Source: a virus
Virus record (IMG/VR): IMGVR_UViG_3300032213_001988
Span: 1 to 64,000 of that record
Length of the DNA stretch: 64,000 bases
Reading direction: 5' to 3' (one strand)
Positions 5,311-50,132 of the stretch are shown here, piece after piece. Each line of letters opens with the position of its first letter. Positions within the stretch are counted from its first letter, which is position 1. A model generated the notes under the pieces. The model saw nothing but the letters and a program-made list of their open reading frames with translations, was not told the DNA's origin and searched no databases. The position numbers and the translations under genes were made by a program.

Positions 5311-5397
5311 CATACACGTTTAACCAAAAGGGTGTACACTAGTTTTACGGGTAAAGAATTGTACATTCATGCGGAATTTGATGAATATGGAGAATTT

Positions 5398-17169: not shown

Positions 17170-17190
17170 TAGAGATAAGGAGACCTAATC

Positions 17191-17868
17191 GTGCCAATTG
17201 ACTTTCCAGCAGGGCCAACAGTAGGTCAGACCTATACTTTTTCAACTCAGACTTATCAGTGGAACGGCACATCTTGGCGACTTGTTCGCACAAGTGCAGT
17301 TGGTCCTACTGGTCCAACTGGTCCCGCATCAACAGTGCCAGGACCAACTGGTCCAACTGGTCCAAGTGTAACTGGTCCAACTGGTGCAGCAAGCACTGTA
17401 ACTGGACCTACAGGACCGACTGGCCCAACAGGTAGCTTTGCAATAGCTGCTTGGAGTACTTACACTCCAACCTGGTACACAACTGGCACAGCAGCCTCAG
17501 TTGGAAATGGAACACTGACAGGCAGATACCAAAGCATTGGAAGAACAATAGTTGGAGAAATTCGTCTTGTGCTTGGTTCAACCTCTGTTCGCGGAACTGG
17601 AACGTATCGTTTTTCTCTTCCAACGCCTGGTATAGCGGAAAACTACCAGCCTATTGGACAAGTTGTTGTTCGCGATGAGGGTCCTGGAAGCACGTTCTTT
17701 GGCACAGTACTTTTCAACGCAGGATTGACAGACCGCATTGAGCTCTGGCTTCACTCACAAAGCGGAACTATCGTTGAGGGAGTTCAAATGACTCACGACA
17801 CTCCAATGTTGATCTCAACTAACGATAAGATTCTTATATACTTCCAATACGAAGCGAATCCAGCTTAG
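17191..17868 (+). CDS. Short collagen-like fibre protein
   Basis: MPIDFP N-terminus, short GPT tract, C-terminal beta domain similar to the C-terminus of the 12520 gene. Confidence 0.75.
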   Translation: MPIDFPAGPTVGQTYTFSTQTYQWNGTSWRLVRTSAVGPTGPTGPASTVPGPTGPTGPSVTGPTGAASTVTGPTGPTGPTGSFAIAAWSTYTPTWYTTGTAASVGNGTLTGRYQSIGRTIVGEIRLVLGSTSVRGTGTYRFSLPTPGIAENYQPIGQVVVRDEGPGSTFFGTVLFNAGLTDRIELWLHSQSGTIVEGVQMTHDTPMLISTNDKILIYFQYEANPA

Positions 17869-17878
17869 GAGATGACAC

Positions 17879-19624: not shown

Positions 19625-19625
19625 T

Positions 19626-20531: not shown

Positions 20532-20550
20532 GAAAAACAGGAGGTAAGAC

Positions 20551-20718
20551 ATGTATACATACGAGGTAACAAGCAACCCTCCAATGTGCAAGATTCTAAA
20601 GGATGGTCAATTAGTTGACCATAGTGGACCTTGGGAGTCAGAGGAGGCTGCCACATCATGGGCAGTGCTCTTTGTAGAAAAGTGCAACGGCGGATATGAT
20701 CCGTTCTCTGCGGCCTAA
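20551..20718 (+). CDS. 55-aa hypothetical protein, possibly a fibre assembly factor
   Basis: AGGAGG RBS; MYTYEVTSNPPMCKILKDGQLVDHSGPWESEEAATSWAVLFVEKCNGGYDPFSAA*; below the track cut-off. Confidence 0.7.
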   Translation: MYTYEVTSNPPMCKILKDGQLVDHSGPWESEEAATSWAVLFVEKCNGGYDPFSAA

Positions 20719-20779
20719 TCTTGAAGAACTTAAGTTACAATAAACCACGTAAGGACCATCAAATGAACGGAGATAGCGC

Positions 20780-21427
20780 GTGCCAGCTATAGATTTTCCA
20801 AACACGCCTACGCTAAACCAGGTATTTACAGCTGGTGGAAGCACCTGGGTCTGGGACGGAGCCAAGTGGGAAGTCTCCCGCGTTGCGCCAATTGGCCCAA
20901 CAGGTCCTCAAGGTATACAAGGAGCTACTGGTCCAACAGGTCCAACAGGTCCGCAAGGAAACCAAGGATTTACCGGTCCAACCGGAGCAGTATCAACTAC
21001 ACCTGGACCTACAGGACCGACTGGTTCACAAGGTGTAGTTGGCCCAACCGGCCCACAAGGGCCTACAGGCACCCAAGGTGTCACTGGTCCTACAGGTCCT
21101 ACAGGTGCACAGTCTACAGTGACTGGCCCAACTGGACCTACAGGTCCGCGTGGTTTAACAGGACCAACTGGAGCATCTTCAACGGTAACTGGCCCAACAG
21201 GCTCAACTGGCCCGTCAGGCCCAATCGGTAAGTTTACCGCAGGTCCAAATCAGCCAGGAGGCTCACTAACAAATGGAGATGCCTGGTTTAACACAATTAC
21301 AGGTGTTACATACGTTTATTATGAAGGAGTCTTTGTTGCTGCTGCCGGTGGAACAACTGGACCAACAGGCCCAATTGGAAATCCAGGCTCATATTCAATC
21401 ACTACTTCCTGGTGGTTAGGTGCATAA
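20780..21427 (+). CDS. Short collagen-like fibre protein
   Basis: MPAIDFP N-terminus, GPT tract, GDAWFN module. Confidence 0.75.
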
Positions 21428-27300: not shown

Positions 27301-30231
27301 TCGGTTCTTGTTAACGGCTCAGGTACCTCGTTCTCTAAGGTTCTTAAGGTAGGAGACCAATTTAGACTGTTCCCACCTAACACCACGATTTCAAAGAACT
27401 TTGCCCCAACGGACGTTAACACAACAAACAACCGCATTACAATTGCGTCACATGGGTTTACCACAGGAGATGCCGTTGTGTTCTCAGCGGGCGGCGGAGT
27501 AGCGCCTAGCCCACTGATTGACCTTTACTATTACTTTGTCCGCGCAGTCTCAGCATCTGAAATCACCCTACACGGGTCACAAGCAGATGCTACCGGTAAC
27601 ACAAGCGTTGTAGCATTCTCAACTCAAGGAACAGCAGGAGCTACGCCGTTTAACCTAACAAAAACAACTCCACTTTCTCCGATCATTCGTAAGATCACCG
27701 CCATTGGGTCTGATACTCAGCTCTCTGTAGATCGTCCTTACTCAGCTGCGTACACCGCACAGTCATATTCGTATCCAACGTTTATCTACGTGCGCCCTCA
27801 AGGGTACGCGCTTCACCGCCCGTTTGACGGCGGAGTTGAGATGTCGACAGGCGCAAACATCTCGCTTGGCGTTATCGTTCGTCAGACACGTAAGTACTTC
27901 CGCTACCAGTCAGGTAAGGGTATTCAGACCTCCTGCGGTATTAACTTCCAGCCATCAATTGATATTGACAGCATGGTGAGAACTACTTCTACAACAGTAA
28001 CAGTAACTACACGTCGTCCTCACGGACTTATCTCAGGTTTGTTCGTTCGCATCTCCCAGGCTGAGGACTCCTTTGGAGTCACCAGCCAGGTATACAACGG
28101 CGATTTCCAGGTAACTGTTCCTGCAGGATCTCTTACAACGTTTACAATTAACCGCGTAGCACAGGTTGGCGCGGAGGCTAGGGCATATGGCTTCCCACAG
28201 TTCTACGTTCGTGAGTGGACCGGTGGAGCTGTTCGTTCAGGTATGTTTGACTTCCAGAACGGTATGTTCTACGAGTTTGATGGACAAAAGATCTACGCAT
28301 GCCGTCGCTCATCAACGCAACAGATGGCTGGAACAATCTCAGCACTTCAAGGCTCAGAGGTTGTATTCGGAACAGGAACAAACTTTACAGGACAAGTTCA
28401 CGTTGGAGACTACATCGTTCTACGTGGACAAAGTTACCGCGTAGCTGAGATTACCTCCGACACTCAGATGTCAATTCGTCCAGAGTACAAGGGTGCTTCT
28501 GGAACTGAGAGGGAGTTTAACCCTGCAACAGTTGTTAACACAACAACGAACTTGTTCTCAATCGTAAGTCATGGCTTCTCTCAAAACTTGCCACTTGTCT
28601 ACAACTCAATTGACGGTGAGCCTATCGGTGGTCTTATCAACGGTAGAGCATACTACTGTGACATCATTGATAACAACTCGTTTAAGCTAATGGCAAACCC
28701 AAATACATCTGGCACAAACGTAGATCTTTCAAGCGTAGGAACAACAACTGTTCACTCGTTTACACCTGCTAAGTCAGGCATCATTGCAACACTTACAGTG
28801 GACGTAAAGGTTCCGCAAGAAGACTGGAACATCGATCCTTGCGATGGAACAGGCATAACTGGATACAATCTAAACCTTGCAAGAATTCAGATGGCGTACA
28901 TCGATTACTCTTGGTACGGTGCTGGTAAGATTCGCTTTGGATTTAAGGATGGCGAAGGTATAGTCAAGTACGTTCATGAGTTTGTTCACAATAACATTCT
29001 TTACGAGTCATACCTGCGCTCTGGTAACCTTCCAGCACGCTATGAGGTTGTCACCTATGACAGCCCGACATATATTCCGTATCTGTTCCACTGGGGTACC
29101 TCTGTCATCATGGACGGCCGATATGACTCCGACCGTGCGTACTTGTTTACTGCAACAGGCCAGACGCTTAACGTCCCTGGAACAACCCGCAAGACATTCG
29201 CGTCTACTGGAATCAATCTTGCAACTGACCTTCTAACAGTTCAGACTCACGGTTTTAACAACGGTGACATCGTGCAGTTCCAGTCAATTGCTGCAACAGG
29301 TGCAAGAGGCGCTAACGCGCAAAACCCTGCAACATCAGTTGTTGGGTCAAACACACTTGCTAACCTAACAAACAATACATCATACAAGATTCTTGTAAAC
29401 TCTGTCAACCTGATACACTTACTTCCAGTTAGTGCAACGATTAGCCTAGGAGCAACTCAGGCTATCACCAGCGCACAAAGCGGCAATACCGTAACGATTA
29501 CAACAGCTAATCCTCACGGAATAACAACTGGTATGCCTGTTGGTTCATACTTTGGTCGCGTGCCTACCGGAGTGTACACAGCTACTAGAGTTAGTGATAC
29601 AGTATTTACCTACCAAGCAACTACCTCAGCTACAGTCGCATCCGCGGCTGACCCTAACATTGCAGTCACCGAGGTTATTAACCTTACCTCACAAGGAAGT
29701 ACACAGTTTACATACTTCCTGTTCCCAGACGGATCTGTAAACAACACATCTGGTCCAAACTATCAACCGCTGCTTTCAATTCGCCTCTCTCCATCAGTGT
29801 CCTCCGGTCTAACCGGCAAGCTTGGTGATCGAGATGTTATCAACCGCATGCAGTTACGTCTACAGGAAATTGGTATCTCATCTACACAGTTGGTTGACGT
29901 TAAGCTACTTCTTAACGCTCGTCTTAACAACCTTAACTTCGTAGGTGTAACAGCACCTTCCCTCTGTCAGATCGTTGAGCACACCGCGGCAGACACCGTC
30001 TCCGGTGGCGTTCAGGTCTACAACTTCCGCGCGTCTGGTGGTTCAGCTGCTGGTGTTGAAGGAACAACAAGTGTTAATATCGACGAGTTGTTTGAACTTT
30101 CAAACTCAATCCTCGGTGGAGACAGCGTTTTCCCTGACGGACCTGATATTTTAACCGTTGCCGTTTCACGTTTAGTAGGCGGTACCACGCTCACATCAGC
30201 TAAGTTATCATGGACTGAAGCACAGGCTTAG
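24391..30231 (+). CDS. Giant virion protein (1946 aa) with glycine-rich domain and many HG beta repeats
   Basis: GYQDWTVP...GASG...GGGGTFV...VAGGG domain; repeated (N/G)HG(F/L)..G..V.Y...G units; Thr-rich. Confidence 0.75.
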   Translation: MPINVTSVGAAGTHSFAKTNVNTAEDYIFYKNTGGDTIPAAYSTGRTFIYSAGAGTITGLTTGDLVYVIASGNVRQLKFSFSSGGAAINFTGATAGSIKFNTPTIYDNKLNIDGSFTNNQAVKYYTTGTPMTGLVSGNTYFLRNVSISSFAGAQALYTLTSNTHTFTSGGVTGRVGPDLATLRASYTTAAAWRDTYLQQGSFQGYQDWTVPVSGIYEFDARGASGFDGAGAGGVGRGAIVKGRVSLTKGEIITIVCGQTGVAPTSGAAGGSGGGTFVVRKAGNVPLFVAGGGSAESGSGAGRDGVTTNLGGTSTAGIAAGGQSGFGGRSTNGYSAGGAGFNGAGQDGFSGSGANAGIQLGGGTYATGLFHNANARVGGFGGFGGAGQSDGTASVQSGGAGGYSGGGGARTTNANQSGGGGGSFITAEANTISTSDGLYNTSSSFNGVAITNLAAYNTGNGTVIMTLVSSFTAGNELYPTALDAENGTNKILIASAGNSYHALTPISLDAQNDTIHTAAGHGLSNGQAVTYFFNGTVPAGIANNTTYYINTVNNYTYRISTTPSSPSFTTINLTTPSSRSTATSDVVRGVVVNTALDTLTINNHGFQVDQPIQYDAGGGTPIAPLQDQTTYFVQEVIDANNIRLKISLNALTYINFTAAGTSTTNSFIFVTVNLLNDELYLPNHGLSTGQAVKYSNGGGTTVGGLTHNSTYFVIKRDNSIIRLASTAANAAVGTAVNLTAVGTGTQTLTVTSLDFTTDTITIPGHGFLQGELVQYDSQGQTVINGLTTATPYYVIFVNGDNIKLATTPENATAGTAVNLIASPAGVGTHKITSLSKTPDGTYEIATVPSATSFTAIARGTVPTIVKTFNPRSTVDPNLETFKIPSHGFLTGTAVTYSRGGDTAILGLTHNTVYYVVAVNRDYIKLATSASDAESGITLSVSDFGTGATHSFTTSQINGNVTGGGNVTIASGSVLVNGSGTSFSKVLKVGDQFRLFPPNTTISKNFAPTDVNTTNNRITIASHGFTTGDAVVFSAGGGVAPSPLIDLYYYFVRAVSASEITLHGSQADATGNTSVVAFSTQGTAGATPFNLTKTTPLSPIIRKITAIGSDTQLSVDRPYSAAYTAQSYSYPTFIYVRPQGYALHRPFDGGVEMSTGANISLGVIVRQTRKYFRYQSGKGIQTSCGINFQPSIDIDSMVRTTSTTVTVTTRRPHGLISGLFVRISQAEDSFGVTSQVYNGDFQVTVPAGSLTTFTINRVAQVGAEARAYGFPQFYVREWTGGAVRSGMFDFQNGMFYEFDGQKIYACRRSSTQQMAGTISALQGSEVVFGTGTNFTGQVHVGDYIVLRGQSYRVAEITSDTQMSIRPEYKGASGTEREFNPATVVNTTTNLFSIVSHGFSQNLPLVYNSIDGEPIGGLINGRAYYCDIIDNNSFKLMANPNTSGTNVDLSSVGTTTVHSFTPAKSGIIATLTVDVKVPQEDWNIDPCDGTGITGYNLNLARIQMAYIDYSWYGAGKIRFGFKDGEGIVKYVHEFVHNNILYESYLRSGNLPARYEVVTYDSPTYIPYLFHWGTSVIMDGRYDSDRAYLFTATGQTLNVPGTTRKTFASTGINLATDLLTVQTHGFNNGDIVQFQSIAATGARGANAQNPATSVVGSNTLANLTNNTSYKILVNSVNLIHLLPVSATISLGATQAITSAQSGNTVTITTANPHGITTGMPVGSYFGRVPTGVYTATRVSDTVFTYQATTSATVASAADPNIAVTEVINLTSQGSTQFTYFLFPDGSVNNTSGPNYQPLLSIRLSPSVSSGLTGKLGDRDVINRMQLRLQEIGISSTQLVDVKLLLNARLNNLNFVGVTAPSLCQIVEHTAADTVSGGVQVYNFRASGGSAAGVEGTTSVNIDELFELSNSILGGDSVFPDGPDILTVAVSRLVGGTTLTSAKLSWTEAQA

Positions 30232-30240
30232 GAGAAAACA

Positions 30241-32950
<2,710 letters not shown>

Positions 32951-32954
<4 letters not shown>

Positions 32955-33230: not shown

Positions 33231-34307
33231 ATGAAGGTAGCTATCTACACAATCGCGCTTAATGAACTTCAATTTGTACAGCCTTGGTATGACTCCGCAA
33301 AGGAGGCAGACTACCTTCTAATAGCGGACACAGGTTCAACTGATGGCACAATCGAGGCAGCGCAGAAGCTAGGAATTAACGTAATAAACGTTCTTGTAAA
33401 GCCTTGGCGTTTTGATATGGGCCGCAATGCGTCTCTTGCAGCGTTACCAGCTGATATTGACTACTGCATCGCACTTGACATGGACGAGGTACTTTTACCA
33501 GGTTGGCGTGAAGAGCTTGAAAAAGCGCACGCAGAAGGTTGGACTCGTCCACGCTACGAGTACACATGGTCATGGAACGAAGATGGGACACCTGGTCTGG
33601 TCTACGGCGGAGATAAGATTCATAAGCGTTTTGGATATCGCTGGAAGCATCCCGTTCATGAGGTCTTGATGACATACGGAGATACTCACGAAACACAGGG
33701 CTGGACAGGATTAAAGATTCATCACCACGCAGACAACACTAAGCCACGTAGTCAGTATCTTCCACTGTTAAAGTTTGCAGTTGAGGAAGACCTAAGTGAT
33801 GACCGCAACGCATTTTACTACGCACGCGAGCTATATTTTTACGGACGTAACGAGGAAGCTGCAGTTGAGTTTAAGCGTCACCTTGCACTACCTCGCGCAA
33901 CATGGCCGCCAGAGCGTGCTGCGTCAATGCGCTATCTTTCAAAGATTGAAACTGATAAGACAGAGTACTGGGCAAACCGTGCAGTTGAAGAAGCGCCTGG
34001 TCGCCGCGAGCCACTAGTGGATCTATCAAAGTACTATTACGAAACATCAAATTGGACAAAGTGCCTTGATTACGCGCAGGCTGCACTAGATATTAAGGAG
34101 CGTCCTCTTGAGTATCTTTGTGAAGACGAGGCTTGGGGATACACTCCACATGACATGCTTTCAATAGCAGCATATCATCTAGGAAAGTTTGATCTTGCTG
34201 CAGAGCACGGAAATCTAGCTCTTCAGTTAGCTCCAGCAGGTGAAAAGTCTAGGATTTCTTCAAATCTTTCTTTTTACGTTTCTTCTCTAGACGCTCCTTC
34301 TTCTTAG
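33231..34307 (+). CDS. GT2 (GT-A) glycosyltransferase with TPR-like C-terminus
   Basis: VAIYTIALNE...IADTGSTDGT...RFDMGRN...IALDMDE (DxD)...VHE; helical repeat C-terminus. Confidence 0.88.
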   Translation: MKVAIYTIALNELQFVQPWYDSAKEADYLLIADTGSTDGTIEAAQKLGINVINVLVKPWRFDMGRNASLAALPADIDYCIALDMDEVLLPGWREELEKAHAEGWTRPRYEYTWSWNEDGTPGLVYGGDKIHKRFGYRWKHPVHEVLMTYGDTHETQGWTGLKIHHHADNTKPRSQYLPLLKFAVEEDLSDDRNAFYYARELYFYGRNEEAAVEFKRHLALPRATWPPERAASMRYLSKIETDKTEYWANRAVEEAPGRREPLVDLSKYYYETSNWTKCLDYAQAALDIKERPLEYLCEDEAWGYTPHDMLSIAAYHLGKFDLAAEHGNLALQLAPAGEKSRISSNLSFYVSSLDAPSS

Positions 34308-35809: not shown

Positions 35810-36086
35810 AGGTGCCCTTGCTATATGGGTCAGTATTGAGATCGTCTAGGTTAAGAGGATCAACGTCATACTGAACCTCATCTGCCTCCATGTTTGCGTA
35901 TATTCCTACTATAGTAATATCTCCACATGAGGCACAGACGTTAATCTCGCCTGTCTTTAGCTCATCTGGAACTGTCACCGCAGTTAGCTTAGATATTAAA
36001 CTTCCATCGTCTCCAACAGATTCTGGCTCCCACTGTGTGTTCTCTTCAAGATAACACTTCTCGCACTGCGGATAGGCTTTTGTCAT
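35808..36086 (-). CDS. Hypothetical Zn-binding protein
   Basis: CEKC...CASC. Confidence 0.6.
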   Translation of the reverse strand: MTKAYPQCEKCYLEENTQWEPESVGDDGSLISKLTAVTVPDELKTGEINVCASCGDITIVGIYANMEADEVQYDVDPLNLDDLNTDPYSKGT

Positions 36087-37318
36087 TCGTAGCGCTTCTT
36101 TGCTGCGTGCCTTGAGAAGCCCTTATCAGTGTCTATAAGCCATTCACGATCTCCGATTAGTTCACCCTGGGGTCCGTTAGGTTCCCCACTCAGAGAGGCA
36201 ACTACGGCATCTCCTAGCCACTTAGCAGCGTGCACTGGAACTGCCTTTCCCCACGTAGCTTGCATCGCAGAGTAGTCCTTAGCACCTTCAATGTCCCAAT
36301 CGTCTGGCAGACCTTGCATGCGTGCACACTCGCGGTGAGTAAGAAGTCGCGGTTCAGTTGGGTGAACAACATGATCTAACGCAGAGCCAGTAAGCACGTT
36401 ACACCAGTGATCTTCCTTCCAGCGATACGGCTGAGAAAACCCAAGTTTATACTGCTTGCGTACAACACGCGCAGATATGTCGACCCAACGTTGAGGAAAC
36501 TTGCCATCATTCATTTCAACGGCCTTCTTTATGGCTCCGCCAAGATCTCCGTTCCCTGGCCACCCGTCATTTCCAATGATGTCAAACACCTCTTGAATTC
36601 TCTGTGAGTGAATCGTGTCCTTGCCAATGTGCCCGTTTACCTTGCCGTTTTTTGAGCGCAAGGACTTAGTAAACTTAGAGTGTTTTTCAATGTAAGGCTG
36701 CGCCTCCCACTGTTGTGGAAGATGCGCAAGATCACCTATGATGTCCATGATCTTAGGGAATTCCTTAGGCTCTGTCACCTGCGCACCAAACTTTAATCCT
36801 TTGCGTACCGCAACCCAGAAGTAACGTGGTCGATACGAGAATCCACCAAGTTGAAGATTGTTTTGTTTTACGTGATATAAGTCGTATTTCTTACCAGAGA
36901 TCTCTTCTACCATAAGACGATACTTGTTCATCGTCTCTCTCCCTTGTGTATAGGCTTGCTGCACGCACTCAAACACAATAATCTTTGGCGCAACTCGCCC
37001 TGCGTATCTCATAAAGGCGCGCGTATGCTCGTGCGCTGCAGAATCAGGACCACGATTTGCAGGACCAGACCAGACTGACCAACCAGAGCATGGAGGACAG
37101 CCAACGACAGCATCAACCTTGTGAACTGGCCACTCGTTTGCGTCATCTGAGAAAAATGTGCTCCACTTATTGCCTAGATGATGACGATTAGCTTCTGCAA
37201 CTGCGTTGCCAAAGTTAAGTGTGCCCGTGCGATTTGTCATTTCCATTCCAGCCTGCACAAGGCCTAAGCTCATGAAACCTGCAAGCCCGTTGCAGTCAGT
37301 AAATGTTGGTGTAGTCAT
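36083..37318 (-). CDS. C5-cytosine DNA methyltransferase homologue with degenerate SAM-binding motif
   Basis: Motif IV GCPPCSGWS, motif VI FECV, motif VIII YRPRYF, motif IX RLLTHRECARMQGLPDDW, motif X WGKAVP; motif I reads DCNGLAGF. Confidence 0.8.
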   Translation of the reverse strand: MTTPTFTDCNGLAGFMSLGLVQAGMEMTNRTGTLNFGNAVAEANRHHLGNKWSTFFSDDANEWPVHKVDAVVGCPPCSGWSVWSGPANRGPDSAAHEHTRAFMRYAGRVAPKIIVFECVQQAYTQGRETMNKYRLMVEEISGKKYDLYHVKQNNLQLGGFSYRPRYFWVAVRKGLKFGAQVTEPKEFPKIMDIIGDLAHLPQQWEAQPYIEKHSKFTKSLRSKNGKVNGHIGKDTIHSQRIQEVFDIIGNDGWPGNGDLGGAIKKAVEMNDGKFPQRWVDISARVVRKQYKLGFSQPYRWKEDHWCNVLTGSALDHVVHPTEPRLLTHRECARMQGLPDDWDIEGAKDYSAMQATWGKAVPVHAAKWLGDAVVASLSGEPNGPQGELIGDREWLIDTDKGFSRHAAKKRYE

Positions 37319-37694: not shown

Positions 37695-37904
37695 CTAAAC
37701 TCTCACCTTGACTTTACAGTCTGCTGAAAACGTTAAGTCCATTGGTCCTTCTTCTCCACAGAAAATAAACATTTCTATGTCAATTTTTTCTTTTATAGAA
37801 TCGTAATCTTCTACTTTAAAATAAGAACATATTCTTTCTATAAGCTTTCCTTCAATTTGTTCTTTTGTTTTTCCAATAATCTGAAAAGTTATGGTTGCTC
37901 TCAT
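37695..37904 (-). CDS. Hypothetical protein, locally AT-rich
   Basis: 69-aa ORF coupled to its neighbours. Confidence 0.55.
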   Translation of the reverse strand: MRATITFQIIGKTKEQIEGKLIERICSYFKVEDYDSIKEKIDIEMFIFCGEEGPMDLTFSADCKVKVRV

Positions 37905-38323
37905 TATTTGATCCTTCTTTCTAACTTGTATGGTGAATAGTGAACTCCGTCAAGAAAAGGCTTCTTGTCGTCGTTTGAGCGAATAATAATATCTCCGCTT
38001 CTTATTGCAACTACTATACCTCTCCGTCCGTTGTGCATTGCGCCCGTTGAGTCGCTGAAGGCGTCGTTCATTACGCGCACCTCTTCACCGACTGTTAAGA
38101 AACCCGCCTGAGCAGGTACCCAAACCTCGTCCTTTGGTGGATCAACAAGCGAGTGGTTAAGCGCAAGTTTGCTAAATACCTCAACGGCAGACTTTGCATG
38201 CTCTGGTTTTAGCTCAAGCGCCTTCCATGTGTCTAGTAGCTCAAGAACAGCCTTGCCAACAACAACACGAACTTTTGCTGAGACAAACTGTTCTCTTGCC
38301 CATTCCTCATTTATATCTGGCAT
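37904..38323 (-). CDS. Hypothetical protein with SH3/KOW-like C-terminus
   Basis: LTVGEEVRV...HNGRRGIVVAIRSGDIIIR. Confidence 0.6.
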   Translation of the reverse strand: MPDINEEWAREQFVSAKVRVVVGKAVLELLDTWKALELKPEHAKSAVEVFSKLALNHSLVDPPKDEVWVPAQAGFLTVGEEVRVMNDAFSDSTGAMHNGRRGIVVAIRSGDIIIRSNDDKKPFLDGVHYSPYKLERRIK

Positions 38324-38324: not shown

Positions 38325-38795
38325 TTACCCCTCCACTACTGGTCTGCACTTTGCGCAGACGTCTGGCGTCTTGCCAACGCCAACATCGTCAATTGCCCTT
38401 GAGCACATCGCGCACTTGACGCCGATGTCCTTTACCTTATATCCATTTAACTGACGCTGCTTATTCTTTTCCATCTTTTCAAGATAGAACTTGTTAAGCT
38501 GCTCGTCTGTTCCTCCCGCCGCAACGATGATGTTTGCAACAAAGTGTAGAACGTCAACAGCTTCCTTAACAATCTCTTCGCGGTCTGCGTAAGGCTTATC
38601 GTGCTGCCAAGGCTTCCACGAAATTGCCTGCCGCATCTCTGCAAGCTCATCGTCGATGGCTAACATGTTCCAGCGCATGTACTCAACAAGACGGCGGATA
38701 TTCGCGTCCTTGTCGCCTTCCATCTCTTCGTAGTTAATGTAGTAGACGTCCTTCTGCAGGTCGCGTGTCTTCTTTAGCCAGCTATCAAACAGCAT
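38325..38795 (-). CDS. Dimeric all-alpha dCTPase/dUTPase (T4 gp56-like) with C-terminal Zn ribbon
   Basis: DELAEM...WKPW...KEAVDVLHFVAN...FYLEKMEKNKQRQLNGY matches the gp56 pattern WKPW...E..D..HF..N...Y..K...N..RQ..GY; then CAMC...CAKC. Confidence 0.8.
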   Translation of the reverse strand: MLFDSWLKKTRDLQKDVYYINYEEMEGDKDANIRRLVEYMRWNMLAIDDELAEMRQAISWKPWQHDKPYADREEIVKEAVDVLHFVANIIVAAGGTDEQLNKFYLEKMEKNKQRQLNGYKVKDIGVKCAMCSRAIDDVGVGKTPDVCAKCRPVVEG

Positions 38796-39804
38796 ATACT
38801 GCTCCTTTTATGTTAAGTGTTCTTTCTAAGTTGTGCAGTGCTTCTTCCTTGCCCGGTGAGTTAGCTAAGTAGGCGCTACTCTGAGTTCTTGACAGATCGT
38901 ATCTTTCCTGTGGTGTCATATCCTCAATCGTTGCTGCAAGGTACCTCCAAGAATTGCCAATTGCAGACGTGCTTGTCCAAAGTGACGCGATTGGCGTTGC
39001 AGTGTTCATTGCTTGGATATAACGATACGTCCACCAGGTTCTATCCTTGTGCGGGGATATAAGTGCACCAATAGACTGCCTGATCTGTTCTTCAACCTGT
39101 GAGTCAGTCCAGCCCTTGTTCCACTTCATTGGCATGGCCGGATAGTTTAAGGTTGAAAGCTTTTTCTTTGTCCACGGTGAATCATGACTATCTGCTACCC
39201 ATCGCGCAGTTCTATCTGTTACACCCTGCGTGTTTTTCTCGACGATATACGCATCAAGGTTTACTCCGTGCAGTGATGCAGCAGCTCCTTCAGGCAGTTG
39301 GTCACTGGCGCTTTGTTTTGTGTCCCAAGGAAGAACAGGGCACAATGTAGTTGGCCATGTTTCATTTAGTAGAAACTCAACAACGGCAAGCATCTCATTT
39401 GATCTTGCAACCGCAAGACGGTATCCCTTGCGGTTCTTGTAGAACTCCTTTGTAAGGTTTCCGTTCCAGGTGCTGATTGATGTCAAACTCGATCTAATCT
39501 GCACAGGATTAGGCGCGTCAATAAAAAACCTAAGCTTATCTGTACCCTTAAGCAGATCAATAAGGTGTAGTGCTCCATACGCGTAGTTTGCGCTTAAACT
39601 TGTTAACGGAGAGATGCCAACAAGAACTGAGTCGTAGTAGTCCAGGTGTTGAGCTTCCCACGTAATATCTGGCTCAAGCATCACGACTTGATGCCCTGCG
39701 TCAGTAAGAACCTTGTCAACAAGACCTGCAAAAGATAGCGAGCGCTTGTTTGCACTGGTTGATACCTGTGGCGCAGACATACCTGTAATAAGAACGCGAC
39801 TCAT
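38785..39804 (-). CDS. GT-B fold glycosyltransferase, putative DNA transferase 2
   Basis: RVLITG...LTDAGHQV...YDSVLVG...RFFID; C-terminal WWTYRYIQAMNTATPI. Confidence 0.6.
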   Translation of the reverse strand: MSRVLITGMSAPQVSTSANKRSLSFAGLVDKVLTDAGHQVVMLEPDITWEAQHLDYYDSVLVGISPLTSLSANYAYGALHLIDLLKGTDKLRFFIDAPNPVQIRSSLTSISTWNGNLTKEFYKNRKGYRLAVARSNEMLAVVEFLLNETWPTTLCPVLPWDTKQSASDQLPEGAAASLHGVNLDAYIVEKNTQGVTDRTARWVADSHDSPWTKKKLSTLNYPAMPMKWNKGWTDSQVEEQIRQSIGALISPHKDRTWWTYRYIQAMNTATPIASLWTSTSAIGNSWRYLAATIEDMTPQERYDLSRTQSSAYLANSPGKEEALHNLERTLNIKGAVYAV

Positions 39805-41006
39805 GCATCGGTACCGTCTGCGTTTAACTTAACGCCCTTGTCCTCGCGTAGTGCGCGCGCAATGATGCGTTCACAGTGATCCTTAAACTGGTCATACGTT
39901 CCGATGTAAGGGCGTAACGCGTCAGCCTGTGCCTTTGCTGCTGCAACTAGCTCTGTATCTGACATCTTTTCAACGTCTGCGATGGTTAACTTATAGGCAT
40001 CACCTAACGGATCACCTTCGCCTTTATCGGTAACGAGAATAGATCCAATGTGCGCTGCGTAGAGGAAGCGCGAACGCCACCAACCTGAACCTGCGTGTGG
40101 ATACGGTGGAGAAAGAATTCCCCAACGAGTGTTGTAATACTCAAGTACTTCCTGCTCTGTATCAAGACGCTTTCCACCAAGCTTACGAATAAGTTTACGA
40201 CTACCAATAATTTCAACAGCCCAGTCTGGTTTCTTACGACCTAGCCATTCATCGTGTGGCATTAGTGCGCCAAGCACCCACGCACGATTCTTTTCTGTCG
40301 ATGGAGTTACAGCTGCGAGCGTATCGTTAACCACTACACTAGGGTCCAGTGCCTCAATGGGACCGACTTCTTTTGGCATACGTTTACGAACACCGGTGCG
40401 GTCACCCCACGCATACATCGGACAAACTGGAACCATACCAGCTTCCCAGCGGCGGTCAATCATGTCTGTTGCTGCCTGCACAAGACGTTTTTCGTAAGGC
40501 TGAACGTTTTCGTCTGTGTCCATCATGTAGTAACGTTCAATGTAGCATTTCTTCGCCGCAACTGGATCTAATACACGAACACGTTCTAACGCTGCCTCGA
40601 TATCTGCGCGACTAAAGTAGGTTGCGCCTTCTTCACCGCGATGCTCTGTTCCAACAAGCAGATGCTTATAGAGCATTGAAGGCTTTTTCATCATAGCGCG
40701 AGCGCCATTGAACACAGTATTAAACTGCCAATCATCAAAAAATCCAACCGCAGGCAAGCCTGAGGATAAAGTATAGAGAGCGCCCATAGCGCCTTGTCGT
40801 CCATTTAGCGAGTTCAACGGAGCAAGGTTAACCCAAGCAACATCGTATGAGGACAAATCCTCGCCAGGCGTTACCTTACGCCAGTCAACTTCATGACCTA
40901 AATCTGTTAATGCCTTTACAATTAACGCAGGCACATCAATCTTTTGTATTGTGCGTCGTTCTGTGTTAATCTGTAACGCAGTAAAACCAGTCATCAAGAT
41001 TTTCAT
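39801..41006 (-). CDS. GT-B fold glycosyltransferase resembling T4 beta-glucosyltransferase, putative DNA transferase 1
   Basis: MKILMTG...LTDLGHEVD...DLSSYDVAWVN.APLN...GFFDDWQF parallels the BGT N-domain (DVNDYD.LIVVNSSIN...YLFTDIRL); C-terminal WWRSRFLYAAHIGSILV. Confidence 0.65.
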   Translation of the reverse strand: MKILMTGFTALQINTERRTIQKIDVPALIVKALTDLGHEVDWRKVTPGEDLSSYDVAWVNLAPLNSLNGRQGAMGALYTLSSGLPAVGFFDDWQFNTVFNGARAMMKKPSMLYKHLLVGTEHRGEEGATYFSRADIEAALERVRVLDPVAAKKCYIERYYMMDTDENVQPYEKRLVQAATDMIDRRWEAGMVPVCPMYAWGDRTGVRKRMPKEVGPIEALDPSVVVNDTLAAVTPSTEKNRAWVLGALMPHDEWLGRKKPDWAVEIIGSRKLIRKLGGKRLDTEQEVLEYYNTRWGILSPPYPHAGSGWWRSRFLYAAHIGSILVTDKGEGDPLGDAYKLTIADVEKMSDTELVAAAKAQADALRPYIGTYDQFKDHCERIIARALREDKGVKLNADGTDA

Positions 41007-45276: not shown

Positions 45277-45732
45277 TTACTGCAATAAACGCACTGGCTT
45301 CCAGCCTGTTTTTACAAGTTTAAGTAGACCGTGCCTTATCGCGTCAAGTGCGTGACCTTCTCCACCTTTGTGCCAGTACTCAAGTTTCTTGAGCTTAGGA
45401 TTGTCAAACATTGCCTTTGCATCTGCCGGTGATTGAAAGTAGATGTCATCTGGCTTTCTACCTGCGTCCATAAGGCACTGCTTAAGGATGCCAATTTGCT
45501 CAAGCGAGTACGGCGCCTGTGAGTTGCGAACCGTCTGCGCGTTAATGGTAAATCGCTCACACACAACGTCTAAAGTGTCCCCGTAAGAGGCTAGAGTGTC
45601 CCGTATAGGCTTGGCGTATTCCTCCTGTTGGAATTCACCAGACCAGATTAAAACCGGCTCCTGGCCGCTCTCAAGGCTAAATAAAGCCATTCCAGTGGAT
45701 TTCCCTGGGTCTACTGCAAGAACGTATCTCAT
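45277..45732 (-). CDS. RuvC-like Holliday junction resolvase
   Basis: VLAVDPGKSTG...VVCERF...H..DAIRH. Confidence 0.7.
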   Translation of the reverse strand: MRYVLAVDPGKSTGMALFSLESGQEPVLIWSGEFQQEEYAKPIRDTLASYGDTLDVVCERFTINAQTVRNSQAPYSLEQIGILKQCLMDAGRKPDDIYFQSPADAKAMFDNPKLKKLEYWHKGGEGHALDAIRHGLLKLVKTGWKPVRLLQ

Positions 45733-47555
45733 TAGTATTTATCTCCCCAAGTCTCCATTGGACCGTCAATACCGGCGGTAAGTGGGACGTCCCAACCCTC
45801 AGTTGTAGTCATGCATTGTTTAACAACTTGCATAATCTCCTGGGCGTCCTCGCGTGGTGCGTTAAGAACAATTTCGTCGTGTACTGGCACGATAAGAAGC
45901 TCGGTTAGATCTGCCTGGTCAAGTTTAATAAGATTTGCCTTGAACACCTCGGCAGCTCCACCTTGAATGAGATAGTTAACAAGTGTGTACGCGCGATCTT
46001 CATCACAAGGTAGGCGTCGACCTGTCCAGGTGTAGACGTATCCTTGTCCCTCTGCCTTCAAGCGTCTCATTCCAGCATCTTCAATTTGACGTTGAAAGAG
46101 CGCCATGCCAGGGAAGCGTAGATCAAACGCGTCTGATGTTTGGCGCATCTGTGGCTCAGTAACTCCTGCTGTTAACGCCTGCTTAGCAACTCCTGCTCCG
46201 TAGAGACGTCCATACACAGTTCCCTTAATTAGGTTACGGCGCTTATCTGACCGTTGCATCGTTGGATCTCCGTAGATTTCACGACCAATTTCAGTGAAAG
46301 GATCTGACCCTGTTGCATCTGCACGGTTAAAGAGCGTGATGAGATTTGGGTCCTGTGAGAGGGAGGCAAACATTCTAAATTCAACCTGGTCAAGGTCTGA
46401 GGTAATGATGACATGATCCTTATCCTTTGGTATGAATGCGGTGCGAACAGTTGCGTCGCCTTTAGGCAACGTCTGTAGCGCAGGGTTTTGGATTGACATG
46501 CGGGAGGTACGAGCGCCAAGCGTCTTTACAGAGGGATGTACAAAACCGTTCACGTTGTCATTGATAAAGTTTGCAAAGTATGTGTTGGCAAGCTTATCTG
46601 CCTTGCGTTGTTTTAGCACCACATCAGCGAGATTCTTTACGTCAGCGTTGCCTGAGATTGCAAGAAATGCAAGTTGGTCCTTATCGGCAGATTTTTGACC
46701 AGATGCTGTAAATGTTGTGATCTCTGCACCAAGCGACTCGAACAAGCGAACAAGTTGAATGTTACTTGTGATTGATACTCCGTTATACGTTTTCTTTGCC
46801 CAGTCTTTTACGGACTCTGCATACGCAGTTAGTTCATCAAACTTCTTCCTTGAGTAGTCAAGATCAATACGTGCGCCGTTAATCTCCATGCGGGTGACAA
46901 TCTTGCGCGCAGCCATTTCCAATTCATATGCACGATGATAAGGCTGTCCTGGCCCGCACTTCTCCCAGAACTGTTCCCATATGCGCATTGTTAAAACTGT
47001 GTCAAGTGCACCGTAAGCCCAATAAGGCTGGAAGTTTGTAGGGACAGTTCCCCATGTCCAGCCGTTTGTTGCTAGTGATGTATCAAGAGTTTCCTGCATT
47101 GCAGCTGCGCGTCCATCAACGTAAAGTGACGCAAGACGTTTTAACGCACCTGAGCCAAGAGGATCAATAATGTGCGCCATAATCATCGTGTCGTGTGCGC
47201 GTTCCCACGGCATCTTCCAGGTTGAGTGAACATCAAACCAACGAGCTTCAAACGCAATGTTATGGCAGACTATTGGGCCATCAAACTTATCCATAGCCTC
47301 GTAAAAAACACCAGACCATTCCTTCCAAGGAATTGCCCAACCTGTTAATCCATCGCCTACCTGCACTAAACGTAGTTGCCCGTGCCAAGGAGATAGAGCG
47401 TCCTTACGCTCACCACCTGGATTCTCACCAGTTTCAGTGTCAATTGAAATTGCGTTGTGAGGGCGACGTTCACCTAGCCACGCAATAAACTCGCGCGCGG
47501 TATCAACGTTATCAACGAGATGTAGTTTTACGTCGCTTAGTCCTGTAGTTGTCAT
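45732..47555 (-). CDS. polA: Family A DNA polymerase (3'-5' exonuclease plus polymerase)
   Basis: Exo SIDTET, HN..FE, HDTM, YGALD; Pol motif A SDLDQVEFR, motif B R..IKG..YG..YG, motif C VHDE. Confidence 0.95.
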   Translation of the reverse strand: MTTTGLSDVKLHLVDNVDTAREFIAWLGERRPHNAISIDTETGENPGGERKDALSPWHGQLRLVQVGDGLTGWAIPWKEWSGVFYEAMDKFDGPIVCHNIAFEARWFDVHSTWKMPWERAHDTMIMAHIIDPLGSGALKRLASLYVDGRAAAMQETLDTSLATNGWTWGTVPTNFQPYWAYGALDTVLTMRIWEQFWEKCGPGQPYHRAYELEMAARKIVTRMEINGARIDLDYSRKKFDELTAYAESVKDWAKKTYNGVSITSNIQLVRLFESLGAEITTFTASGQKSADKDQLAFLAISGNADVKNLADVVLKQRKADKLANTYFANFINDNVNGFVHPSVKTLGARTSRMSIQNPALQTLPKGDATVRTAFIPKDKDHVIITSDLDQVEFRMFASLSQDPNLITLFNRADATGSDPFTEIGREIYGDPTMQRSDKRRNLIKGTVYGRLYGAGVAKQALTAGVTEPQMRQTSDAFDLRFPGMALFQRQIEDAGMRRLKAEGQGYVYTWTGRRLPCDEDRAYTLVNYLIQGGAAEVFKANLIKLDQADLTELLIVPVHDEIVLNAPREDAQEIMQVVKQCMTTTEGWDVPLTAGIDGPMETWGDKY

Positions 47556-48026
47556 TTAATCCTCTAGTATCGTTACATCAATACTGCAATTTTTAAGATA
47601 ATCAATTGTAGCTTCTGGCTTTCGGTGAATTGCCTTACTGCCAACACGCATAACAACTCTTGCAACTCCTGAGTTAGACACAAGCTTTGCGCATTGTAGG
47701 CATGCTACGTCTGTTATGTATATTGTTCCACCTTCAATACGTGATCTATCAACGTATAAAAGAGCATTTGCTTCTGCATGAATTGACGGACACGTGTCAT
47801 ACATGTTATCTAGTGGTACAAGACCTTGCGCACGCGGGCACCACTCAATGCAGTCGCCCTCAACGTCAAGAGTTGCAGCAGGCCCATTATACCCGGTAGA
47901 CGCAACGCGCTGGTTGGAAGAAACTACAACCGCGCCAATCTGTGCACGAGAACAACGTGAACGTTTAGCAATGGTGTCTGCTACGTCCATCCATACCTTG
48001 TCCCATGAAGGTCTATCTAAGCTCAA
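47556..48026 (-). CDS. dCMP deaminase
   Basis: CSRAQIGAV...TGYNG...HAEANAL...ACLQC (H.E...C..C zinc motif). Confidence 0.9.
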   Translation of the reverse strand: MSLDRPSWDKVWMDVADTIAKRSRCSRAQIGAVVVSSNQRVASTGYNGPAATLDVEGDCIEWCPRAQGLVPLDNMYDTCPSIHAEANALLYVDRSRIEGGTIYITDVACLQCAKLVSNSGVARVVMRVGSKAIHRKPEATIDYLKNCSIDVTILED

Positions 48027-48256
48027 AACGGAACATCTCCCTTATCATCGTCATCATCAATGTGACCGTACTCGTCCATTCCTTCGTGAACTCCTGCAGC
48101 AAGAATATGCGCAACAATAGTTACAGCCTGTCGACGTGTAAAACCAGCACGCGTAAGTTCGCGATACATCTCATGCATCTGTAGTGCAGCCTCGCGCAAA
48201 GGACTTATATTAAAGTCCTCCTCGTTAAGACCGCCTTCTTTCTTATTGTCCGTCAT
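48023..48256 (-). CDS. Hypothetical protein
   Basis: 77-aa ORF coupled to both neighbours. Confidence 0.65.
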   Translation of the reverse strand: MTDNKKEGGLNEEDFNISPLREAALQMHEMYRELTRAGFTRRQAVTIVAHILAAGVHEGMDEYGHIDDDDDKGDVPF

Positions 48257-49134
48257 TATTTACTTTTCTTGTCTGCTTGCTTTTCATCCTTCTGTAAGTT
48301 ATTTAGAACAGCGCGTTTCATCGAGTCAGTATACCACTTCTCAGCGTCGTTAAGACGCGCATACGTTGGCTCACTCACAGTTGCCTGCATTGCAAGCATG
48401 GCAGATGACTTAACCTCGTTCCAGGTGCGTCCAGTGATTGCAGGAATTGTCGGGCTATGCAGTGCGTGTGCAAGCTTATCTGCTGAGGCGTAGTGCTGCT
48501 CATAAATGTGAAGTGATCCTACGTGGTGATTGTATGTTCCAGGCTCGATACCTAAAACAGATGCCATAGCAATTTGCACGCGAGTAAACTGGAAGAAGTC
48601 ATACGCTGCACCTAGCCATACATCGTTTGAGCGCATATACACACTCATGTTAAGCTTGTTATTACGAATACGGAACTGATGCAGGATTGTGCAAGGGTAG
48701 TCACGCTTTCGTTCCTGTAGGTCAAGCTGCGGGTTCCAAATTGTAACTACTGCCTGTCGTGTATCAGGGTCTTGCATAAGTCTGTCAATAATCATGTCGT
48801 ATTGCCCTGCAGTTCGAGGACCGTATGCTCCGTGAAATAAACCGTTGTCCTCCGCGTAGTTTGCAAACTGCGGGCCAACGGAGATAACTAAGTCTGGAAT
48901 AGTTACACCTGCAAGAAGTTGACACGCCTCAACCGCACCGATGCCAGGAACTGTTCCTCGACCAACCTCAAGAGGTAAGGTGTTAAACACGTTGTCAATG
49001 CGAATAATCGCATCCTCGATCTCAAGGGTCTTCATACCACGTGGAGCAACCTCCTTGCCGTGCTCAAGTACATGCTTAACAAGATCAACGTATCCGTTGA
49101 CTCCGTCTTCTATATTTATTATCGCAGTATCCAT
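48256..49134 (-). CDS. Thymidylate-synthase-fold enzyme, dCMP hydroxymethylase-like
   Basis: DYPCT catalytic Cys; MRSNDVWLGAAYDF has Asp at the dUMP/dCMP specificity position; GSLHIY. Confidence 0.85.
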   Translation of the reverse strand: MDTAIINIEDGVNGYVDLVKHVLEHGKEVAPRGMKTLEIEDAIIRIDNVFNTLPLEVGRGTVPGIGAVEACQLLAGVTIPDLVISVGPQFANYAEDNGLFHGAYGPRTAGQYDMIIDRLMQDPDTRQAVVTIWNPQLDLQERKRDYPCTILHQFRIRNNKLNMSVYMRSNDVWLGAAYDFFQFTRVQIAMASVLGIEPGTYNHHVGSLHIYEQHYASADKLAHALHSPTIPAITGRTWNEVKSSAMLAMQATVSEPTYARLNDAEKWYTDSMKRAVLNNLQKDEKQADKKSK

Positions 49135-50132
49135 GCGTCATCCTTTTCTTGTAGTGTAGCAACTCGTAGAATTGCATCTCCGTATTCTTCCTTGCTTTTG
49201 TTAAAGAACCTACGCACATACTGCGGGTGAGGCAGAACAGAGTAGTAGTCCTCGTGTACGGGAATTGACGCCAACGTCTTCTCCGCAAGACGCCCAAGAA
49301 CAACTATTCTTGGGAAACCTAACGTTCTCCATAACTTTAAGAAGGAGTCCTTCACACCTTCATCGTTTATATTGACGATGCCCACGGCACGCCAAAGCTC
49401 CTCGGACATTGCAGTAAGTAGATACTCCGCAGAGTTACCATCAACAGGCATAAACGGAAGTTTTGTTTCCTCGCCGTATTTCTTTACGATGTTACGCGTA
49501 TCTCCAATAAGCAGCACCTTCGGGCTTGGGTTTCCAATATAGTATGGAAAAGGCTCGAGCTTGGCTGCCATTAACTCAACCTGCTCCGCGCTATCAACTA
49601 TATACTTTGCAACCTCAGGTATAAGATCAATGCTGTCTGCTGGAGGCTCAATCTTTGCAATGATGTTTGATGAGCCACAGGCAATTTCATATTGTTTAAG
49701 AATATCACTGAGGTCATCTACGTCTACAAAGTCGTCGCCGCGAGAGGCAAGACGCTGCTGAATAACATCAAGAGGCTGATATAGCCAAAATTGAGCAACG
49801 CCACGAGACATAAGGAAGAGTTCAACCCAACGCCAACCGGCCTTGCCTAATAGACCATATCCATCCTTGTTTGTACTTGGGCGAAACTTAGGAGCGTATG
49901 TTACTTCGCCCCAGTGCCAACGATCTGATAATCCAATTTTATTAAACCAATTTATTGGTTCAATTGACATGACGTAGTCGTTTAACACCCAACGGCGTGT
50001 TTGTTCTTCAGGACGCCCCTTGTGAAAAAGACGCGTTGGAGTAGTTGCAAAGCGCTCGTTAAGCTCGTGCTCAACTGCAGCGATAAGAGAGCTCTTACCC
50101 GATGCGTCGGTACCTTCGATTACTATAAACAT
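49119..50132 (-). CDS. dNMP (thymidylate-type) kinase fused to a uracil-DNA-glycosylase-like domain
   Basis: IEGTDASGKSS P-loop and DRWH; C-terminal VLLIGDTRN...FMP..GNSAEYL...IVVLGRLA...LPHPQY. Confidence 0.75.
   Translation of the reverse strand: MFIVIEGTDASGKSSLIAAVEHELNERFATTPTRLFHKGRPEEQTRRWVLNDYVMSIEPINWFNKIGLSDRWHWGEVTYAPKFRPSTNKDGYGLLGKAGWRWVELFLMSRGVAQFWLYQPLDVIQQRLASRGDDFVDVDDLSDILKQYEIACGSSNIIAKIEPPADSIDLIPEVAKYIVDSAEQVELMAAKLEPFPYYIGNPSPKVLLIGDTRNIVKKYGEETKLPFMPVDGNSAEYLLTAMSEELWRAVGIVNINDEGVKDSFLKLWRTLGFPRIVVLGRLAEKTLASIPVHEDYYSVLPHPQYVRRFFNKSKEEYGDAILRVATLQEKDDAWILR

Follow-up and report, generated by a model that had tools for sequence, protein, structure and literature searches.

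A putative deoxycytidylate hydroxymethylase of the thymidylate synthase fold in the replication region of a phage genome

The gene and its protein

The window analysed here is the first 64 kb (positions 1 to 64,000) of IMG/VR record IMGVR_UViG_3300032213_001988, the complete genome, 131,518 bp with direct terminal repeats, of an uncultured lake phage; the GC content of the phage DNA is 47.6%. On the minus strand, at 48256-49134, lies an open reading frame (ORF) that runs from ATG to TAA and encodes a protein of 292 amino acids with the fold of thymidylate synthase (TS), containing YMRSNDVWLGAAYDF. The peptide YMRSNDVWLGAAYDFFQF is found in the same translation, and the protein matches Pfam family PF00303 (Thymidylat_synt; 3.7e-27). 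From its diagnostic residues and a predicted structure we consider this gene likely, at a probability of roughly 80%, to encode a 5,10-methylene-tetrahydrofolate-dependent deoxycytidylate (dCMP) hydroxymethylase, the product of which would be 5-hydroxymethyl-dCMP (5hm-dCMP). The gene and its diagnostic codons are as follows.

48256..49134, minus strand: TS-fold enzyme, predicted folate-dependent dCMP hydroxymethylase (5hm-dCMP synthase), from PF00303, the AlphaFold2 model and diagnostic residues
48598..48600, minus strand: codon GAC, base-specificity residue Asp179 (E. coli Asn177, T4 gp42 Asp179, MilA Asp186)
48622..48624, minus strand: codon of Asp171 (E. coli Asp169), kept; Asn at this site marks flavin-dependent 5-hydroxy-dCMP synthases
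48691..48693, minus strand: codon TGC, catalytic nucleophile Cys148 (E. coli Cys146)
48700..48702, minus strand: codon GAC, Asp145 (E. coli Leu143, T4 gp42 Asp145), the hydroxymethyl-versus-methyl position, three residues upstream of Cys148

A preliminary description of this DNA had reported a TS homologue with Asp in place of Asn at the specificity position, encoded by GAC at 48598-48600, and both the ORF translation and the alignments identify that codon as Asp179. The proteins aligned with MAFFT were the query, E. coli ThyA, T4 gp42, SPO1-type gp29, two close relatives and the enzyme of XP12, a phage in which 5-methylcytosine replaces cytosine in the DNA. The query segment RSNDVWLGAAYD runs without gaps against RSCDVFLGLPFN of ThyA and RSNDVVFGFRND of T4 gp42, the two comparison strings having been quoted correctly in that description. 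Between the RS.D motif and the specificity position there are no gaps, and Asp179 shares its column with ThyA Asn177 and T4 gp42 Asp179. The alignment also dealt with the concern, raised at the same time, that a different residue might occupy the 177/179 position: Asp179 sits there. A phmmer alignment with MilA, the cytidylate (CMP) 5-hydroxymethylase of Streptomyces rimofaciens, is gapless from Cys148 to His209 of the His-x-Tyr motif and pairs Asp179 with the specificity Asp of MilA. The equivalence of Asp179 is based on these gapless sequence alignments together with structural superpositions. The catalytic Pro-Cys pair, already described as intact, is unbroken (P147-C148, with TGC at 48693-48691), and Thr149 follows Cys148 directly, as in T4 gp42 and MilA.

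Asp179 is invariant in an alignment of 148 homologues, 143 of which are 34-47% identical to the query and four closer. A search of 1.84 billion protein-cluster representatives furnished 149 aligned representatives of 50%-identity clusters, and when these are mapped to E. coli numbering all 149 have Asp at position 177; the catalytic Cys and the Thr after it are both invariant in this set. A motif scan finds Asp at the specificity site in 267 of the 269 homologues retrieved. Its retention across the homologues marks Asp179 as a feature under selection in a large protein family, and not as a chance substitution.

The AlphaFold2 model, built with the 148 homologues, has a mean pLDDT of 97.7 and a pTM of 0.94, and superposes on TS-family structures over the whole core. 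MilA is the top PDB match by sequence (phmmer, E 5e-23) and by fold (Foldseek TM 0.83; VIA Z 30.1 over 274 residues, the C-terminal helices included), with lower fold scores for the flavin-dependent dCMP hydroxylase 9iqc (Z 24.1) and for ThyA structures (at most 23.0, about 22-23). A quick maximum-likelihood tree, calculated without MilA, groups the query family with the enzymes of SPO1 and CP-51 and separates them from ThyA, XP12, T4 gp42 and RB69 gp48 (SH-aLRT 95); T4 gp42 falls outside the query clade, though on a very long branch (length 3.6). In the same tree the SPO1 and CP-51 deoxyuridylate (dUMP) enzymes are nested inside the Asp-type clade. A tree constrained to hold the Asp-type proteins as one group, apart from these Asn-type enzymes, is better by 80.9 log-likelihood units (lnL +80.9, p-AU 0.97), so that the nesting is not claimed. 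Within the TS superfamily the query falls in a large lineage of Asp-type proteins, apparently distinct from that of T4 gp42, with MilA as the nearest relative in structure.

It had been predicted that automated annotation would call this gene thyA, and JGI does name near-identical relatives "thymidylate synthase". GenBank applies the same label to the orthologue in the nearest sequenced phage, the metagenome-assembled Actinomycetia phage DSL-LC01 (66% identity, syntenic). All eight NCBIfam TS equivalogs (TIGR03284, TIGR03283, NF002495-9) score far under their cut-offs, at 87.4 bits against 174.55, 71.9 against 108.35 and 74.9 against 327, with a range of 43-75 bits where the cut-offs are 325-427; the protein is therefore not a ThyA orthologue by NCBI's own criterion.

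Substrate and product

The rule for position 177, Asn for dUMP and Asp for dCMP or CMP (PMC8670742, PMC13326640, PMC5175136), is itself already known from T4, MilA and virome studies; it is textbook-level and is applied routinely to viromes (PMC8670742, PMC13326640). In MilA the cytosine determinant is Asp186, where TS and dUMP hydroxymethylase have Asn instead (PMC5175136), and an exchange of Asn and Asp switches the base preference (mutagenesis cited in PMC8670742 and PMC6400193). Positions 147 and 177 are the two best discriminators between cytosine-modified and unmodified virome contigs (PMC8670742). The query has Asp at 177, like T4 gp42, XP12 and MilA, whereas the proven uracil enzymes compared (ThyA, SPO1-type gp29 and CP-51) have Asn; at 147 it has Thr, like T4 gp42 and MilA. 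The catalytic set is conserved, comprising R21, E58, Y94, R126, C146, R166, S167, D169, H207 and Y209 in E. coli numbering.

Position 143 bears on the product. Leu at this site keeps water out and correlates with a methyl product, and Asp or Glu is found in hydroxymethylases (PMC13326640, the residue rules of which were validated in vivo). Asp145 of T4 gp42 activates the substrate water, and D145N abolishes activity (PMC6400193). The query has the hydroxymethylase-type residue, Asp145, and lacks the hydrophobic shield of ThyA (Leu143, Trp80/Trp83), with Asp, Phe and Tyr in its place. The C-terminal segment of the ThyA type is replaced by about 70 residues of helix resembling those of MilA, and Asn occupies position 168, which it also does in the two proven hydroxymethylases of the comparison.

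These residues bear directly on whether the enzyme might instead act like the dCMP methyltransferase of XP12, making 5-methyl-dCMP by reductive methyl transfer, with a deaminase turning part of it into thymidylate (dTMP). Asp177 would suit any cytosine-specific enzyme of this fold, XP12 has a similar adjacency of TS and deaminase genes, and the phage is without a TS or ThyX of its own, so that deamination of 5-methyl-dCMP would neatly yield dTMP. The XP12 pattern, however, consists of a non-acidic 143 (Asn in XP12, Leu in ThyA), Trp80, a ThyA-type C-terminus and a dihydrofolate reductase (DHFR) gene adjoining that of the enzyme; the query has Asp and Phe at the two sites, MilA-like helices and Asn168, and neither DHFR nor ThyX nor a further TS homologue turned up in a search of the complete 131,518-bp genome. 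The pairwise BLAST match to the XP12 enzyme is weak (25% identity, E 7e-18). We regard a methyl product as improbable, and the 5-methyl-dCMP alternative of the preliminary description is ranked low accordingly, on Asp145 and Phe.

The same description had allowed for 5-hydroxy-dCMP. Flavin-dependent synthases of this compound (the RB69 gp48, DLP3 gp80 and HY126 AfhB type), which start the pathway to ether-linked glycosyl-5-hydroxycytosine, also have Asp177 and an acidic residue at 143; the HY126 enzyme (9iqc) is the second-best structural match; and DSL-LC01, the closest sequenced relative, has UDP-galactopyranose mutase (UGM) in the same module, as does RL38JI, a phage with 5-hydroxycytosine (5hoC). 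The mark of these synthases is Asn at position 169, with nine diverse homologues validated (PMC13326640). This D169N change, present in every homologue found to make 5-hydroxy-dCMP, is absent here: the query has Asp171 at the site, and Asp is found in 149 of 149 representatives and throughout the 148-sequence alignment. Folate-dependent MilA, moreover, matches far better than 9iqc (Z 30.1 against 24.1), and a flavin enzyme is very improbable.

With MilA as the top PDB match, the substrate might conceivably be the ribonucleotide, as for MilA and BcmA, and the role one in small-molecule or RNA-related metabolism and not in DNA precursors. Ser167 and Arg126' confer preference for deoxyribose, and Ala176 and Lys133' the ribose preference of MilA, the A176S/K133R double mutant of which loses CMP activity (PMC5175136). 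Ser169 and Arg126 of the query, at E. coli positions 167 and 126', are of the deoxyribose type, and the gene lies in a replication module, with a deoxynucleoside monophosphate (dNMP) kinase on one side and a dCMP deaminase and PolA on the other. We give hardly any credence to a CMP substrate.

Sites 177, 143, 169 and 167/126 all agree in pointing to cytosine, a hydroxymethyl product, a folate enzyme and deoxyribose, and for each alternative, whether a methyl or 5-hydroxy product or a substrate with uracil or ribose, there is a particular residue among those tested that speaks against it. The earlier proposal of dCMP as substrate and 5hm-dCMP as the foremost product is in this way supported by alignment, predicted structure and published diagnostic residues. 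By analogy with T4 gp42, Cys148 would add to C6 of dCMP while Asp179 forms hydrogen bonds to, and protonates, cytosine N3/N4. C5 would then attack the activated one-carbon unit, and departure of tetrahydrofolate would leave an exocyclic methylene intermediate. No hydride transfer would follow; water would add to give 5hm-dCMP, because the site is open and polar, with Asp145 for Leu143, Phe for Trp80 and no ThyA-type C-terminal lid.

Several observations weigh against this assignment. Among T4 gp42, SPO1-type gp29 (as its Goe10 orthologue) and the XP12 enzyme, the three enzymes of the pairwise BLAST panel, the strongest match is the SPO1-type dUMP hydroxymethylase (34% identity over 220 amino acids, E 9e-38); T4 gp42 gives about 33% over 120 residues (E 2e-16). 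One element of the hydroxymethylation signature derived from T4, a Ser or Thr at the second residue ahead of the catalytic Tyr (Ser94 in T4; PMC6400193), is Gly102 in the query, within a motif, FHGAYGPR, that is nearly invariant across the family; the same site is Thr in MilA and Ala in SPO1 gp29, and as the latter is a proven hydroxymethylase the feature is not universal among such enzymes. Absence of DHFR is weak evidence, because the host DHFR could serve. In the genome there is no recognisable DNA glucosyltransferase or carbamoyltransferase, and a DNA cytosine-C5 methyltransferase homologue is kept (36083-37318, minus strand), which is odd because it would have no substrate if every C were 5-hydroxymethylcytosine (5hmC). 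The catalytic PPC is present in this homologue, together with an ENV-like FECV motif; its Pfam match begins only at profile position 56, leaving the N-terminal part that binds S-adenosylmethionine (SAM) unmatched, and its motif I is atypical. Possibly the protein is something other than an ordinary methylase, or 5hmC may replace only part of the cytosine.

The BLAST result also raises the question of a uracil-specific enzyme in spite of Asp179, either a dUMP hydroxymethylase like SPO1 gp29, for hydroxymethyluracil DNA, or an odd TS fed by the deaminase. Such a reading could draw on the neighbouring dCMP deaminase, which would supply dUMP; on the pyrophosphatase family found nearby, which includes dUTPases too; on the C5-methyltransferase homologue, which implies some unmodified C; and on a relative in phage PW916 annotated as deoxyuridylate hydroxymethyltransferase. 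That label, however, is an unverified annotation on a D177 protein, and XP12 too has a deaminase adjoining its Asp-type enzyme, so that the deaminase is not diagnostic and gives no argument for a uracil substrate. The combination typical of dUMP hydroxymethylases, Asn177 with an acidic 143, is not that of the query, which like all 149 representatives has Asp177; the known effect of the Asn/Asp exchange and the constraint test, with its grouping of Asp-type proteins apart from SPO1 and CP-51, stand likewise against it. We find a uracil substrate unlikely. The closest characterised relatives, MilA in PDB and fold searches and SPO1 gp29 in BLAST, are both hydroxymethylases, and the base residue is of the cytosine type.

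Neighbouring genes and the possible fate of the product

The genes around that of the predicted dCMP hydroxymethylase include candidates for the other steps of a 5hm-dCTP route.

49119..50132, minus strand: dNMP kinase (residues 1-190) fused to a domain like uracil-DNA glycosylase (UDG) family 4/5 (residues 187-331), 337 amino acids; candidate 5hm-dCMP kinase
48023..48256, minus strand: ORF of 77 amino acids, function unassigned; its start codon ATG overlaps the stop codon of the hydroxymethylase gene by one base
47556..48026, minus strand: dCMP deaminase (PF00383, 3.6e-18)
45732..47555, minus strand: family A DNA polymerase with 3'-5' exonuclease, PolA (PF00476, 2.8e-54; PF01612)
38785..39804 and 39801..41006, minus strand: two overlapping paralogous ORFs of 339 and 401 amino acids, a phage-only family; possible post-replicative transferases
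38325..38795, minus strand: all-alpha nucleoside triphosphate pyrophosphatase, a dUTPase_2-family relative of T4 gp56 (PF08761, 2.2e-12); candidate for the step from dCTP to dCMP

The minus-strand order is the 337-residue kinase-UDG protein, the hydroxymethylase, the 77-residue ORF, dCMP deaminase, PolA, an ORF of 151 amino acids, SNF2 helicase, PD-(D/E)XK nuclease, AAA_24 ATPase, a DUF669 protein, two unassigned ORFs and the pyrophosphatase, after which come an ORF of 139 amino acids (37904-38323) and the C5-methyltransferase homologue. The stop of the kinase-UDG ORF, the upstream gene, overlaps the hydroxymethylase start by 16 nt, and the overlaps at both ends of the hydroxymethylase gene denote a tightly coupled operon. 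Neither the 77-residue nor the 139-residue ORF has a Pfam or PHROG match; the conserved 151-residue ORF has no Pfam match, and its DSL-LC01 orthologue is annotated as a RuvC-like resolvase. Among 80 related loci that were fetched, all from relatives of at least 62% identity, the kinase fusion is present in 75, the deaminase in 78 and a homologue of the 77-residue ORF in 56.

Structural comparison of the 337-residue protein (AlphaFold2 pLDDT 92.6) relates its N-terminal part to YorR (Z 17.7) and to thymidylate kinases (about Z 13.5), and its C-terminal 145 residues to the UDGs 1l9g, 2d3y and 6ail (Z 11.5-11.7). No Pfam-level thymidylate kinase was found elsewhere in the genome. In the UDG-like domain GDTRN stands for the usual GEAPG, and where HPS would be expected the sequence retains HPQ. 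A further fold similarity is to the family-A polymerase of phiLo, in its N-terminal domain (9qhs, Z 10.4). The fusion occurs in 394 metagenome protein clusters, and the 120 listed show identities of 54-96% with 90-100% coverage.

Over 107 residues the pyrophosphatase shares 31% identity with the T4 gp56 dCTPase/dUTPase (E 3e-11). In T4 the route to the precursor 5hm-dCTP uses four enzymes, namely a pyrophosphatase, a hydroxymethylase, a kinase and a deaminase, and by that analogy the neighbours fit a T4-like route. TS, MazG-type pyrophosphatase and dCMP deaminase co-occur on virome contigs, often only on cytosine-modified ones (PMC8670742), and the same grouping of pyrophosphatase, Asp-type TS and deaminase is seen in phage PW916 and in a Manatee Springs phage, the enzymes of both having D177/D143/D169. 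Gene content and order suggest the following steps. The gp56-like pyrophosphatase would convert dCTP to dCMP, from which the TS-fold enzyme would make 5hm-dCMP; the kinase encoded by the overlapping upstream gene would raise this to the diphosphate and a host nucleoside diphosphate kinase to the triphosphate; and the phage PolA would incorporate 5hmC into phage DNA. The dCMP deaminase would send part of the dCMP pool to dUMP for dTMP synthesis by the host, and the two paralogous proteins (38785-41006) may decorate 5hmC afterwards. Because the enzyme bears the published sequence marks of dCMP hydroxymethylases, this phage group probably builds its DNA with 5hmC, as T4 does.

The families of the 339- and 401-residue proteins are paralogous (hhalign probability 100%, E 1e-64). 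In DSL-LC01 (L098:285-3430) the orthologues of the two, 30% and 33% identical, flank a UGM that is genuine by its match to solved UGMs (E 6e-39), and the same arrangement is found in the related locus L087. In RL38JI, sugar-nucleotide genes, UGM among them, lie in DNA-glycosylation clusters (PMC13326640), of which the UGM next to the paralogues is reminiscent. By analogy this suggests that the paralogues are sugar-nucleotide-using transferases. The transferase role draws on that UGM, on the DSL-LC01 GenBank label and on Glyco_trans_1_2, found on 37% of one neighbouring cluster (Atlas). It is only a lead, since the paralogues have no Pfam match in 25 members of the family, no PDB profile match and no similarity to T4 beta-glucosyltransferase. 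Glucosyltransferases of this T4 type were considered for them and rejected, as hhalign gave probabilities of only 0.6-2.3%; PF09198 was not found in the genome. The 401-residue protein has a weak phmmer match to the plant resolvase MOC1 (E 0.008).

A wider scheme, which we put forward tentatively and judge on balance doubtful, would make the enzyme the entry to an undescribed cytosine hypermodification common to a large, widespread group of freshwater actinobacterial phages of about 130 kb. In this scheme the paralogues would decorate 5hmC, and the UGM beside them in DSL-LC01 and L087 would suggest galactofuranosyl-5hmC as the product; the modified base in DNA might in addition be a target of the divergent C5-methyltransferase-like protein and of the kinase-UDG fusion.

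Further genes were observed elsewhere. A DUF4406 protein (6178-6720, minus strand; 9e-23) belongs to what we take to be a superfamily like nucleoside 2-deoxyribosyltransferase, and may be a dNMP N-glycosidase or an enzyme of the nucleotide pool. Beyond the window, at genome positions 124500-126634 on the plus strand, a SAM decarboxylase homologue (3e-12) precedes an ORF of 283 amino acids and a SAM methyltransferase of class I. Upstream of the decarboxylase homologue is a class II ribonucleotide reductase (genome 122221-124260, minus strand). Eight large ORFs with collagen-like repeats, which have the look of fibre proteins, occupy window positions 1-4721, 12520-21427 and 30241-32954, the repeat scan having excluded 24391-30231. 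Another large ORF (21497-24379) is free of collagen-like repeats and encodes instead He_PIG and ALK/LTK glycine-rich domains. A glycosyltransferase with GT2 and TPR domains (33231-34307, plus strand) is at the end of the plus-strand block, and a serine recombinase is encoded at 5332-6060 (plus strand).

Relatives and comparison with known systems

The paper on DSL-LC01 makes no mention of the gene. After this phage the nearest sequenced relatives are Gordonia phages of the genus Godonkavirus (about 36% identity), with the same order of kinase, TS, deaminase and polymerase and the same D177/D143/D169. Public metagenomes contain hundreds of near relatives, on contigs reaching about 150 kb; a relative is encoded in at least 581 IMG/VR stretches and also in hundreds of metagenome protein clusters. 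Megablast of the 7-kb region against phage records gave no match, and a literature search found no paper linking hydroxymethylcytosine to actinobacteriophages. DSL-LC01 is the only published member of this lake-phage group, the presumed hosts of which are Actinobacteria.

The residues D177/D143/D169 also occur in proteins of the cultured phages PW916 (L093:3280-4098), Bacillus phage G (gp319; L095:2995-4041) and Gordonia phage Phendrix (gp180; L004:7974-8858), annotated as deoxyuridylate hydroxymethyltransferase or thymidylate synthase. These residues make it probable that the three are likewise dCMP hydroxymethylases. In eight distant relatives of the Asp type (P0143, P0145, P0165, P0182, P0196, P0212, P0221 and P0250; 403-452 amino acids) the TS-fold enzyme is fused at its C-terminal end to an Endonuclease VII domain.

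Should the assignment hold, 5hmC or a derivative takes the place of cytosine in a large group of lake phages, which bears on how these phages evade restriction and on how their DNA behaves in sequencing and cloning, through library bias, methylation callers and enzymatic conversion methods. It also bears on database annotation, as the label "thymidylate synthase", or even "deoxyuridylate hydroxymethyltransferase", is applied across the whole Asp-type clade, to PW916, Bacillus phage G and the Gordonia phages among others. The same gene block is a place to search for new DNA-modifying transferases. With the principle established, it is the host group, the size of the misannotated clade and the unexplained neighbouring genes that are of note.

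T4 gp42 (EC 2.1.2.8; PDB 1B5E, 6A9A) has the same TS fold as the query and shares Cys148, Asp145, Thr149, Asp171 and Asp179, the identical numbering being a coincidence, as well as the Ser and Arg of the deoxyribose type. The parallel would extend to its place as the first step towards hydroxymethylcytosine DNA, alongside a gp56-like pyrophosphatase, dNMP kinase and dCMP deaminase. Unlike the query, T4 gp42 keeps Trp80, has Ser94 at the site of Gly102, and at 246 amino acids is without the C-terminal helical extension of about 70 residues. The query phage in turn differs from T4 in its presumed actinobacterial host, its PolA replisome and the absence of a recognisable alpha- or beta-glucosyltransferase.

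MilA (PDB 5B6D, 5JNH) shares Asp177, Asp143 and the Thr after the catalytic Cys; it differs in its preference for ribo-CMP through Ala176/Lys133', and is a bacterial enzyme of an antibiotic pathway and not a phage enzyme of DNA precursors. The SPO1 gp29 type (compared as the Goe10 orthologue, and also as CP-51 gp100) shares Asp143, Asn168, Gln127 and the loss of Trp80, but has Asn177, Asn147 and a one-residue insertion before the specificity residue, and acts on dUMP for hydroxymethyluracil DNA. RB69 gp48, DLP3 gp80 and HY126 AfhB (PDB 9IQC) share the TS fold, Asp177, an acidic 143 and dCMP as substrate; they have Asn169 and use flavin and O2, whereas the query keeps Asp169. The XP12 dCMP methyltransferase and ThyA share the TS fold and the full set of catalytic residues, XP12 also having Asp177 and an adjacent deaminase; both differ from the query in Trp80, a non-acidic 143 and the ThyA-type C-terminus, XP12 further in its neighbouring DHFR and ThyA in Asn177.

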